DNA of 62,198 nt, counting the filler, from Bonamia ostreae (taxonomy: Eukaryota): NCBI GenBank assembly GCA_040357525.1. It is 8 parts of 8 records of this genome, joined end to end, with 100 filler letters (N's around TTAATTAATTAA, not from the genome) between each part and the next. Parts side by side here need not be neighbours in the genome. Positions count along the whole stretch, not along the records: positions 31,468 to 39,120 come from JBDODL010000073.1; 7 more parts are not named here. The stretch is one strand, 5' to 3'. Below the pieces are notes generated by a model, which made no database searches, was not told the origin of the DNA, and was given only the letters and a program-made list of their open reading frames with translations. Position numbers and translations under genes: made by a program. Shown piece after piece: positions 31,582 to 35,427 of this stretch (the first letter of the stretch is position 1; every line of letters starts with the position of its first letter).

Positions 31582-32442
31582 ATGGTATCAAAAATAATAC
31601 TTCTGTTTTTAACAAATATTTTGATCATGGTACAATCAGATTCCATAAACCAGGAAGTCGACGGAGACTTAAAATATGACATCAAAACACTTATATCCGA
31701 AAAAGACTGGTCTACACTATTCCCTGTTCAAGGAATACGCGGGTGCCATGGCGCAGAATTACTCTCACACAAAAACTTTGTCGCTGCGGTGGAAGAAGTT
31801 TGGGCCAAAGGCTCGAAGTTCCTCAGATCAAAAAATATGCAACAGAACCGCGTCGAGCTTGCTGCCTTCCTTGCACAAACCAGCCACGAAACTACCGGCG
31901 GATATGATGGTGCCAAGCCACCTCGCTATTTTTGGGGATACTGTTTCCCCACAGAAATATCTCACGCCAATAAATACTGCTCAGAGGCTTCAGCCGCTAC
32001 TTGCAAAGCAAACCACTACGATTGCAAGTGCGTTCCTGGTAAAGCATATTATGGAAGAGGGCCGATAATGCTAAGTTGGAACTACAATTATGGCAAATTC
32101 AGTCAAAGTTATTTCAAGGACAACCGATTGATGGCGAATCCTGATTTGCTGGAAAAGAAAGGCGATATCGCTTTTATTGCAGCTATTTGGTTTTGGTCGA
32201 CTCCCGACTATTCGAAGCCATCTTGTCATGATGTCATTCTCGGAATAACCAAACCTTCTGATGTAAGGGGGCGCGATGTCGGATTTGGATTGCTTACGGA
32301 CATCATCAATGGCGGGCTTGAATGCGGTCATGGCAATGACAAAAGGGAAAATGATCGGATTGGCTTCTATAACCACTATCTGAAGTACTTTGGAGTATCT
32401 GACAACCGTCAGAAATCTTGTGCCCATATCAGACCATTCTGA
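31582..32442 (+). CDS. Secreted glycoside hydrolase family 19 chitinase
   Basis: Signal peptide; AAFLAQTSHETTGG (catalytic Glu), WGYCFPTE, YYGRGPIMLSWNYNYG, AAIWFW, PSCHDVI, IINGGLECG, DRIGFY. Intronless. Confidence 0.95.
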   Translation: MVSKIILLFLTNILIMVQSDSINQEVDGDLKYDIKTLISEKDWSTLFPVQGIRGCHGAELLSHKNFVAAVEEVWAKGSKFLRSKNMQQNRVELAAFLAQTSHETTGGYDGAKPPRYFWGYCFPTEISHANKYCSEASAATCKANHYDCKCVPGKAYYGRGPIMLSWNYNYGKFSQSYFKDNRLMANPDLLEKKGDIAFIAAIWFWSTPDYSKPSCHDVILGITKPSDVRGRDVGFGLLTDIINGGLECGHGNDKRENDRIGFYNHYLKYFGVSDNRQKSCAHIRPF

Positions 32443-32889
32443 GTATTGAAGAGTAAATGCCTTAAACACATCATTTTCTTTTCGTTTTTGTGTAGTTTCA
32501 ATGTTTATATGTTTATTTTATAACATAAACTTTTAAAGTATTTGATCGTTCTTTTTAAATTTCACGTTTTGTTAAATATAGTAAATGTTTCAAATGCCAA
32601 AAATTCAAACACACGTACAAAAATTGTTTCAATGATATAAAGTGCAGATTTTGCTCTAAAAGAATTTTAAAAAGGGCGATAATAATTATATTAAATAATA
32701 AGGGAGATATAAAATAAAAAGGGAGATAAAGGGCTTCCTTGCGGAAGTCAGTGTTTAAAAGAAAAACTTCTCGTTTAACAAGAAAGTTTTTTAAAAATTT
32801 AAACATTAATTAAAAACTTATTTAAAGTTTAAACTTCTCATTTAAAGTTGTTTAAAAACTTCATTAGTTTAAAGATAACCAAGAATTCA

Positions 32890-33120
32890 TACAGATTTAA
32901 AATGTGACCTATTATTTGATTCTGAAGATGACTCCCACTTTAAAGATTTGAATATTATTTAACTATTGAATAATATTGGACTGTCTATGTTGCACCATTG
33001 TAATTCGCATTCCATTCCTGTGCGGTTTATCAATATTTTAGAAACTTTTTCCACATTGTCAAGAGATAGGAACATTCTGTCCCAATAGGGTTTTTGTCTC
33101 CCTACCGATTCACAAATTAT
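32890..33120 (-). pseudogene. Possible Myb/SANT repeat remnant (SNAPC4-like)
   Basis: A short frame reads EKVSKILINRTGMECELQWCNIDSPILFN then KW, resembling W.K.S...R...EC...W.N...P..N...W. No clear start or full gene. Confidence 0.3.
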
Positions 33121-33183
33121 AAAAAGTTTGATAAACAAAAATCTGTTAAAAATCGAAATTATTTACTGAATAAGCAAAGGTAA

Positions 33184-33672
33184 TCACTTCTTTGATCTAC
33201 TAGAAATCTTGGATGTGGAAGGTGGAATAGCGCTTCCTGGAGGTCCTGGAGGTCCTGGGGGTCCCGGAGGTCCGATATTTCCATTAATACCTGGAGGTCC
33301 TGGAGGTCCAGTAACTCCTTGGGGTCCAGGTTGTCCTTTCAAACCTGGTAAACCAACAGTCGGGGGTCCAACTGGGCCAATTTCTCCGCTAGGTCCCTTA
33401 GCTCCAGGAGGTCCCATTGGAGCGGCAGGTCCTGGTGGTCCGGGAGGACCTACTGGTCCTGGAATTCCTTGGGGGCCTGGTCCGCCTTTGCCTGGAGGAC
33501 CCTGTAGTCCAATCATACCAGGCTTTCCTGAACATCCTGGTTGACCAGGAGTACCTGGATGGCCTGGAGGACCGACAACATCAGGGCCAGGTGCACCAAT
33601 CTTTCCTATAGGGCCTGGTGGTCCTGTCGGTCCCTGCGGGCACAAATTCTTCATACTAATTTCCGTTTTCAT
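33184..33672 (-). CDS. Short collagen-like (Gly-X-Y) protein 1
   Basis: About 135 aa of Gly-Pro-rich triplets with short interruptions. N-terminal Cys, internal GCSG, Ser/basic tail, no signal peptide. Confidence 0.9.
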
Positions 33673-34027
33673 TTGAAATCACTGAAGCAGTTAATCTATC
33701 CATTCTCGTTCCATTTACATTGAAGAAATTTTAAATATTTGTTAAGCTATCAACAATAAAAAATGTTTTTACTGAGTTAATCTTTATTGAATGATTCATG
33801 TCTAGATCATCTATATTTAAATTATGGGACAGAAGAAAGGGTATCAATAAGAGATTTAGGAAATCAAAAAGTATATAAAAACTCAAGAAGTAAAAAAAAC
33901 AAGTTAAAGAAGGATAACTAAGAATATAGCGAAAAGAAAGACAAAATCGAAACAACATATTTGCACTGTCGTTATTTACCACATAAAATTACAACAAAGA
34001 AATTTATTCACGATAACAAGAAGCCGA

Positions 34028-34513
34028 CTAATTATTTCTAGATCTTGCCGAAGCTGAGGAAAATGGGGAACCAGGCGGGCCTGGTGGTCCAGGAGGTCCA
34101 GGAGGTCCAATTAGTCCTGGTTCTCCCAATGGTCCCACCGGTCCTCCAAATCCTACTAAACCCAAATCTCCTGGTGGCCCCGGTGGCGCGTCTCCAGGGA
34201 TTCCTGGTGGTCCCGGGGGTCCTTGAGGCCCTGTTGGTCCAGGAATTGTCGCAGAGGCACCAGGAGGACCAGGGGGTCCCGGTTGACCAGGAAATCCTTT
34301 TGGACCAGTAGGACCGATAATGGACAGCCCTTCAACGCCATCTTCGCCTTGATTTCCCGGGCAACCAGGTTTTCCACTGCAGCCAGGTTCTCCAGGGGGT
34401 CCTTTTACCTTTTGTCCCGGTTCTCCCATTGCTCCTGGAGGTCCACAAGGGCCTGGCGGTCCTGGCGAGGCATCAGGCTTTTTTTCATAACAATCTTGAA
34501 AGCAATCCTTCAT
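34028..34513 (-). CDS. Short collagen-like (Gly-X-Y) protein 2
   Basis: [10 protein letters not shown] followed by triplets containing GPC, GCSG and GCP. Ser/Arg tail. Confidence 0.9.
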
Positions 34514-34824
34514 TAGTTCTTTCTATAAAATTGCAATCTTTCAAACATGTTCGACATGAAAGAAATTTAATTTATTTGGCTTTTCAATTTCGACTTTTTC
34601 AGATTTGATAATAATTCTCAAAATTTTTTTTAACTTTTCCCAAGAAGTTTTATTTTGGATAAAAATTTCTTTGAAGTATTTAAAACAACAAGAATTTTTA
34701 TTTTCCGCCTTCAATAGGAAAATGAAATTGCCAAAAGCCAAAATTAACCGAATGAACCAATAATAAAATTTCTGTTGTTTCGAATGATTCCAAAATCAGT
34801 TTCGATTTATTCTCCAGAATTAGA

Positions 34825-35427
34825 ATGTCACATTACTATTCGAATTATGATACCTCTATGTGCGGACCTCCGGGGCCACCGGGGCCACCAGGATGTCCCG
34901 GGCCTCTAGGCCCCCCTGGATGCCCAGGACCACAGGGCAAAAAGGGTTCTGAAGGAAAACCAGGATTCCAAGGACCGCAGGGTCCTGTCGGAAGTCCAGG
35001 TGATCCTGGGAAACCGGGTCTCCAAGGACAACAAGGAATACAAGGGAAAATGGGACCGATCGGACCGCCAGGAGAAAAAGGCTGCCCGGGATGCCCCGGA
35101 GCGCCAGGTCAAACCGGCCAACAAGGACCCGTTGGGCCGCCAGGAAAAACGATCGTAGGTCCACCGGGACAGCCAGGTGTGGCAGGACAACCCGGGCCAA
35201 TCGGACAGCCTGGACAACCCGGACCACCAGGCCCTGCGACAAAAGGACCACCGGGCCCTCCAGGACCACCAGGTCAAACCGGCTCCAATGGGCCGCCGGG
35301 ACCTCCAGGAACGCCCGGAATCCCCGCTCCTCCCGCTCCTCCAGGACCTCCGGGACCTCCAGGACCACCAGGGCCGCCAGGGCCACCAGGTGCGTTAAGA
35401 GCAGCCATAGCCAAAGCTTCACATTAA
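34825..35427 (+). CDS. Short collagen-like (Gly-X-Y) protein 3
   Basis: [13 protein letters not shown] followed by about 175 aa of triplets with four GCP units. Confidence 0.9.

Follow-up and report, generated by a model that had tools for sequence, protein, structure and literature searches.

Does a chitinase gene next to three collagen-like genes in Bonamia ostreae form a dedicated wall module, or are these unrelated genes that happen to lie side by side? The question is raised by a contig of 7,653 bases (G000:C72, JBDODL010000073.1) at positions 31468-39120 of the window, i.e., the whole analyzed stretch of 62,198 nucleotides in which contigs are joined by N-linkers. Coordinates count along the window unless a contig is named. 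The assembly is fragmented, with 10.3 Mb in 7,503 contigs. An initial annotation had placed a secreted chitinase of the GH19 family and three Cys-containing mini-collagens within about 3.9 kb of this contig, and had suggested that the four genes jointly serve to build or open a chitin/collagen wall, spore ornament or extrusive organelle. The four open reading frames (ORFs) are indeed present, one encoding a GH19 chitinase and three encoding Gly-X-Y proteins, as recognized by PF00182 and PF01391, respectively. A joint module now appears unlikely. The collagens belong to a dispersed family of small collagen-like proteins that lack export signals. We tentatively interpret them as cytoplasm-assembled structural proteins of the haplosporidian spore wall or its filaments, kept in a species without a demonstrated spore. 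The GH19 gene next to them is probably incidental, with two unrelated things lying side by side.

The genome-wide scan with PF01391 scored 66 candidates and returned 45 matches on 21 contigs. After exclusions, the family comprises 22 genes on 18 contigs, a count to be read as a floor. Nineteen of these genes are located on 17 contigs other than C72, and many unlinked collagen copies are what the initial annotation had named as speaking against its own proposal. Among the excluded matches, C46 is the opposite strand of a Pro-rich repeat and carries a stop. L018 (C1918) and L048 (C4004) differ in triplet make-up, lack the break shared by the family and look foreign, presumably bacterial- or phage-like. 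A search for Gly-Pro-Pro codon patterns produced 60 matches, none outside the contigs already listed. The members contain 28-57 triplets in several runs, and most share a break of four residues, the last two of which are mostly hydrophobic. Run lengths follow register classes. The class 6-9-7-6-12/13 includes collagens a and b of C72, a gene on C679 and two on C704, while the class of approximately 31-9-8-6 includes collagen c of C72, two genes on C444 and one on C3853, with C470 and C1111 being related. A third class shows runs of 5-7 plus 19-25. Cys residues are mostly in the helix across the family, and many N-termini are Tyr-rich. Because three members share a GT-AG intron in the same phase after the first run, the family is native. 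Two collagens, L044 (G000:C481, 1081-1983) and L039 (G000:C118, 4079-4852), carry long His/Glu/Asp-rich and helical-looking C-terminal repeats, which suggests a metal binding or coiled-coil trimerization region. Collagens of Bonamia or other ascetosporeans are not mentioned in the literature searched, which included the main text and four supplements of PMC11069148 and had most subscription papers, including classic ultrastructure work, outside its scope.

On C72, collagen a (33184-33672, minus strand, 162 aa) has 42 triplets in five runs of 6-11-5-6-14, which we read as a variant of the 6-9-7-6-13 arrangement of the 41 triplets in collagen b (34028-34513, minus strand, 161 aa). Collagen c (34825-35427, plus strand, 200 aa) has 56 triplets in runs of 32-9-9-6, with four Gly-Cys-Pro triplets and a Tyr-rich start. 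All three exceed the cut-off of PF01391, the only Pfam family found in them, and end in C-terminal tails of 9-14 residues. Each is organized in 4-5 blocks, with the longest Gly-X-Y runs (13-32) being long enough for a triple helix. The proteins are paralogs of 161-200 aa, as first described, but they are not each other's best match. Collagen a is closest to the gene on G000:C679, collagen b by a small margin to one on G000:C704, and collagen c to genes on G000:C444 and C3853. Since the closest paralog of every one of the three lies off C72, the trio did not arise by recent triplication. The emphasis on Cys needs qualification, since the residues are few (2, 5 and 5 in collagens a, b and c) and mostly lie within Gly-X-Y runs (1, 3 and 4, respectively). 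Contigs of run X4, whose status as an RNA run is a guess, span collagen b without gaps (33913-34630, including 117 bases upstream) and cover collagen c in the same way (34704-35367, including 121 bases upstream). The genes had been described as intronless, and no intron is found in the parts of GH19, collagen b and collagen c covered by RNA contigs. In X4, depth is approximately 1e5 on GH19 compared to 1-60 on the collagens, which X5 does not cover. Contig depth is no basis for ranking genes, however. The runs had been found by means of this stretch, and missing cover carries no information.

The collagens are set apart by their N-termini. The best 10-residue N-terminal hydropathy is 0.68, -0.02 and 0.12 in collagens a, b and c, compared to 2.73 in the GH19 protein. 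No signal peptide is apparent in the trio by hydropathy, and no upstream exon with a hidden signal can be constructed for any of the three. The same holds across the family, where none of the 22 members has a hydrophobic N-terminus (best hydropathy at most 1.22) or a hydrophobic run of at least 8 residues anywhere. An upstream signal exon is drawable for 2 of 22 genes versus 35 of 440 shuffles. Nematode cuticle collagens are short interrupted Gly-X-Y proteins with class-specific segment lengths as well as Cys and Tyr cross-links. The interrupted Gly-X-Y with class-specific segment lengths is what the Bonamia proteins have in common with them, but the C72 trio lacks a signal, a membrane anchor and an N-terminal RXXR site, and PF01484 (Col_cuticle_N) was found neither in the trio nor in five other members scanned. 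The initially proposed similarity to cnidarian and myxozoan minicollagens is confined to short, Gly-Pro-Pro-rich Gly-X-Y proteins with Cys, encoded by a multigene family of a reduced parasite. Minicollagens are defined, in the available text of PMC4195985, by a signal peptide, a propeptide and six-Cys domains at the N- and C-terminus. The Bonamia family has no signal peptide, propeptide or CXXXCXXXCXXXCXXXCC termini and carries its Cys in the helix instead. Six-Cys domains were detected in none of the 22 genes by either strict or loose patterns. Flanks of poly-Pro are absent as well, with no four-Pro run in the trio and a single such run, inside the collagen region, in two of the 22 members. 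Lacking both signal and six-Cys domain, the Bonamia proteins are therefore not minicollagens by that definition.

The family extends beyond Bonamia. A profile built from six members recovered 11 proteins among 8,000 candidates scored, with P0142 and P0143 at 128 and 116 bits compared to 67 for the next protein. Both originate from a marine eukaryote catalog and preserve the N-terminal motif outside the collagen region, along with the break and the register, and neither has a hydrophobic leader. Identity is 58-62% for P0142 and P0143 with their cluster mates. In-register identity at X and Y positions amounts to 32 and 29 of 60, a level reached by none of 100,000 triplet shuffles and compared to 19 for the best of 49 other collagen matches. 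Judged by sequence, P0142, P0143 and P0153-P0155 are true orthologs of the C755 class. They match neither of the two classes on C72. A profile search with the C72 classes returned 40 generic collagens out of 8,000 candidates scored, and atlas searches for collagen relatives likewise yielded generic collagens only. Screens for the DNA context of the orthologs confirmed none of 266 metagenome stretches, and the one match among 85 viral stretches was a generic one at 41%.

Collagen proteins assembled outside the secretory pathway have a precedent in bacterial spores, where BclA-type proteins are synthesized in the cytoplasm of the mother cell and carry no signal peptide. The filaments on the spore surface consist of trimers of collagen-like chains, with a short region at the N-terminus, and lie next to coat proteins rich in Cys (PMC13188886 and PMC10470788, in the available text). 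BclA of the Bacillus and Clostridioides exosporium serves here only as a model of how such proteins work, with no homology beyond Gly-X-Y. The C72 collagens have neither a homologous N-terminal anchor nor a globular C-terminal domain, are rich in Gly-Pro-Pro and Gly-Cys-Pro, and are eukaryotic. We suggest, with due reserve, that the Bonamia collagens are cytoplasm-assembled proteins of the spore wall or filaments that work in a BclA-like manner, because signal-less chains would assemble in the cytoplasm and the haplosporidian wall forms inside cytoplasm. The chains would be made on free ribosomes, assembled in the cytoplasm and Pro-hydroxylated. Fixed segment lengths and the shared break might allow paralogs to align in register as homo- or heterotrimers, producing rods of approximately 28-51 nm that would pack side by side. 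Disulfides between helix Cys, as well as Tyr-rich ends joined by a signal-less tyrosinase, could then cross-link the rods once the surrounding cytoplasm breaks down. The resulting structure would be the spore wall, including its lid and filaments, the known haplosporidian structure built inside cytoplasm, between endosporoplasm and episporoplasm. GH19 would act separately. The available parts of two studies report that ornaments of Bonamia and Haplosporidium are derived from spore wall material (PMC4141087) and that walls arise as dotted deposits within sporoblasts, around which the episporoplasm is wrapped (PMC9790386).

Candidate enzymes for both modifications are encoded in the genome. The hardened-wall idea predicts a tyrosinase, and a search for one led to L172 (G000:C1304, 867-1813), which has six Cu-site His, four predicted short GT-AG introns, 31% GC and no signal peptide, the contig ending inside the gene. 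Such an enzyme is unexpected in a reduced intracellular parasite. The initial annotation had proposed a search for prolyl-4-hydroxylase, and a similar ORF is present as L171 (G000:C638, 2019-2933), matching a solved prolyl-4-hydroxylase at E 3e-18 and cut by the contig end. This ORF has no obvious signal peptide and is located downstream of a cytochrome b5-like ORF. A structural, spore-related role as first proposed remains plausible for the collagens given the family size, the outside ortholog and the signal-less tyrosinase. The word AGCCA occurs within 200 bases upstream of 12 of the 22 collagens compared to 3 of 21 control ORFs and none of the three GH19 genes, one of which (C72) has only 114 readable upstream bases. 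Against a background of 14.6%, this corresponds to p 1.4e-5 before correction for approximately 512 words, with the word chosen post hoc. AGCCA may be a general CCAAT-like element. Collagens b and c are arranged head-to-head around a spacer of 311 bases (34514-34824), which contains AGCCA-core copies at 34577-34581 (minus strand) and 34736-34740 (plus strand), each facing its gene. The spacer is a weak candidate for a two-way promoter.

The GH19 gene (31582-32442, plus strand) encodes 286 aa and matches PF00182 with an E-value of 1e-58 and 199 bits, compared to a cut-off of 25.5. Its hydrophobic N-terminus agrees with the secretion originally assigned to it. Glu103 (31888-31890) and Glu125 (31954-31956), which we take to be the catalytic acid and base from the barley numbering, are kept and invariant in all 11 aligned rows. 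The protein is probably an exported chitinase with an intact active site, one of a small lineage-specific family. The genome has three GH19 genes (four profile matches, with one gene in two exons) on C72, C67 and C213. The C67 paralog is the public protein P0002 (245 aa), and its source label, Bonamia ostreae, confirms the assumed organism. On C67, the GH19 open frame (L033, 2173-3411, minus strand) has a long Cys-rich N-terminal region without a Pfam match, after which P0002 starts, and the contig also carries several ORFs with hydrophobic N-termini. The modeled fold is predicted to be plant-type GH19, lysozyme-like and helical with loops (Foldseek E 6e-16, target TM approximately 0.8). Plant class I/II enzymes (barley 2BAA, papaya 3CQL, Ficus 7V91) share this fold, both catalytic Glu, the SHETTGG and SWNYNY motifs and 39-42% identity. 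In contrast to these, the C72 enzyme has no chitin-binding domain, it has a Cys-containing loop extension also seen in marine proteins, and the three Bonamia copies cluster apart from the named plant clade. In a midpoint-rooted tree without bootstrap, based on 165 of 178 rows (13 were dropped for short alignment) and mostly on rows without names, the three Bonamia paralogs and P0189 form one clade (SH-aLRT 97), with 18 named plant rows apart. No donor of the GH19 by horizontal transfer emerges from this tree. P0189 is a 290-aa relative from outside this assembly, where its best match has 37% identity. Of the two Glu it retains the first, the second being Ser, and it may thus represent an inactive relative in some related organism.

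Where the chitinase acts is a separate matter. Downstream of the gene, an RNA contig of run X5 has a loose poly(A) end at 32470, 28 bases past the stop (3' UTR at 32443-32470), which shows that GH19 is transcribed in mollusc-derived material. A supplement of PMC11069148 lists one chitinase-GO orthogroup under gains of B. ostreae, gains of the ascetosporean ancestor and losses of paramyxids and mikrocytids. This orthogroup likely corresponds to the GH19 family described here. The main text of that study makes no mention of chitin. Chitin synthase, a search for which had been proposed initially, has no genome match by PF03142 (2 of 14 controls matched) or PF13632 (12 of 14), and absence from a fragmented assembly is not proof. 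PF01644 matched no control and is uninformative. Chitinases of family GH18 aimed at host barriers have been proposed for other invertebrate parasites (PMC4014436, in the available text). The target of the Bonamia GH19 is most likely host or environmental chitin rather than a parasite-made wall. Taken by itself, the chitinase adds one ordinary enzyme to a known family, and is notable chiefly for being secreted by a parasite whose genome yielded no chitin synthase.

Co-regulation of GH19 and the three collagens to build or open a chitin/collagen wall draws its appeal from their adjacency within 0.75 kb in the assembly, from the local clustering of collagens (7 of 22 in three clusters) and from a GH19 that seems catalytically intact. 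The nominal chance that one of three GH19 genes neighbors one of 22 collagens is 2-6%, without correction for the post hoc choice and assuming 2,300-5,200 genes, the group range given in the available text of PMC11069148. We nevertheless consider such a module improbable given that 19 collagens, including the best paralogs, are unlinked, that the contigs of the two other GH19 genes (C67 and C213) carry no collagen, that no chitin synthase was found and that GH19 and collagens are targeted differently. AGCCA is also absent before all three GH19 genes. Among distant GH19 loci, none of 80 has a collagen nearby, and two had Gly-rich non-collagen runs; these were the best 80 of 477 metagenome relatives, all 33-43% identical, with no close kin for synteny. 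An assembly artefact, either a misjoined contig or collagens from the host or a co-purified organism, is the least credible explanation. The interval between GH19 and collagen a contains a dispersed repeat of 50 nt (32978-33027), which differs at one position from a copy on G000:C1941 and matches it exactly over 33 nt. Public DNA contigs from runs X1 and X2 abut at this repeat, and none bridges it. The GH19-collagen link therefore rests on the assembly, even if a misjoin at so short a repeat is unlikely. The foreign-looking collagen-like matches on C1918 and C4004 also fit contamination. On the other side of the repeat, single DNA contigs run from all three collagens into the CENP-C gene in X1 (32999-37548), possibly the assembly's own source, and in X2 (32999-37920), and the collagens are therefore native. 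Further members have eEF1A, fibrillarin, Mpp10 and phosphofructokinase ORFs as contig neighbors and contain short GT-AG introns. A misjoin would part GH19 from the collagens and nothing else, and the spore-wall interpretation already treats these as separate.

Two further explanations concern the collagens themselves. They could form a scaffold in the cytoplasm or cortex of ordinary microcells or plasmodia, used for survival in seawater or haemocytes, with no spore implied and GH19 unrelated. The lack of signal peptides, the X4 contigs on collagens b and c and the direct life cycle reported in the available text of PMC10293890 would all fit, and 22 intact reading frames imply use in a frequently occurring stage. 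This remains doubtful, since no such structure appears in the literature searched and Cys/Tyr-rich cross-linking chemistry with a tyrosinase would better suit a hardened coat. Alternatively, non-classical export could turn the collagens into adhesins or mimics of host collagen at the haemocyte surface, with the class diversity reflecting host interaction. An intracellular parasite of haemocytes, a class with variable charged or His-rich C-termini and a collagen-like adhesin reported for Pasteuria (PMC10987987, in part) point in this direction. We regard it as unlikely, as no member has a signal or a sufficiently long hydrophobic run, strict length classes and Cys in the helix suggest self-assembly, and a helix conserved at 58-62% in a distant organism is unlike a fast-evolving adhesin.

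Assignment to the spore wall faces its own difficulties. The composition of haplosporidian spore walls was not found in the literature searched. The absence of signals rests on hydropathy rather than on a trained predictor, and tyrosinase and prolyl-4-hydroxylase have other possible uses. The AGCCA motif is missing upstream of 10 of the 22 collagens, including collagen a, and its controls are few and partly doubtful. The gene-shaped X4 contigs on collagens b and c hint at transcription outside a strict spore stage. B. ostreae transmits directly, and a field survey found it in one plankton sample only (PMC10293890). No outside ortholog was found for the two classes on C72 by an insensitive profile search that missed the query's own proteins. 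The nominal adjacency chance with GH19 is low, and in a fragmented assembly unlinked contigs could be neighbors.

The remainder of the contig supports its origin. CENP-C (36435-38930, minus strand, with a candidate start at 38930) has a C-terminal cupin and is the sole PF11699 match of the genome, over the cut-off and with neighbors in frame. Its four GT-AG introns of 21-27 nt are spliced out in RNA contigs of X4 and X5, which confirms the native anchor initially assumed. An Arg/Pro-Leu-x-Trp-Trp stretch is present, which we take to resemble the CENP-C motif. Between CENP-C and the collagens, a 156-aa ORF outside the collagen set (35529-35999, minus strand) has a RuvX/YqgF match below the cut-off (20.2 of 29.2 bits) and is covered by RNA contigs of X4 and X5. 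The contig preceding C72 ends within what reads by eye, from sequence alone, as the start of a DnaJ-type gene (31161-31367). Neighboring contigs in the window encode two candidate surface proteins, a 506-aa Cys-rich frame without a Pfam match (39275-40792) and a frame of 381 aa (47024-48166) whose start is hydrophobic and whose kringle match is weak, below the cut-off. Elsewhere in the assembly, L036 (G000:C7503) is an AT-rich, mitochondrial-looking rRNA region. A search for nuclear SSU in the assembly yielded no nuclear match and only mitochondrial-looking rRNA, and the two matches of an Rfam scan are at chance level. Seven runs sharing the species label of X1 (X18-X24) contain next to none of the sequence words of the locus, which fits, without proving, a parasite present in some hosts only.

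Whether B. ostreae forms spores bears on the reinfection of fallowed oyster beds. No spore has so far been demonstrated in B. ostreae, unlike in B. perspora, according to the available text of PMC7527985 and PMC13119199, and fallowed beds reinfect (PMC7527985). A bolder proposal, which we put forward as speculative and rather unlikely in full, is that haplosporidians make their spore walls and filaments with a lineage-specific toolkit of collagens, assembled in the cytoplasm, cross-linked through Cys and Tyr and convergent with the bacterial exosporium. B. ostreae might then keep the full toolkit of 22 collagens, tyrosinase and prolyl hydroxylase because it still sporulates in an unfound host or season, and the marine ortholog transcripts might stem from a relative sporulating in the plankton. 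The family provides concrete markers, and haplosporidians that form spores can be compared with those that do not for its presence, decay or expression, while environmental RNA can be followed for the same. Should the proteins indeed be located in spore walls, they would represent molecular components of the ornament that defines haplosporidian genera, as well as a case of eukaryotic collagen assembled without the secretory pathway.

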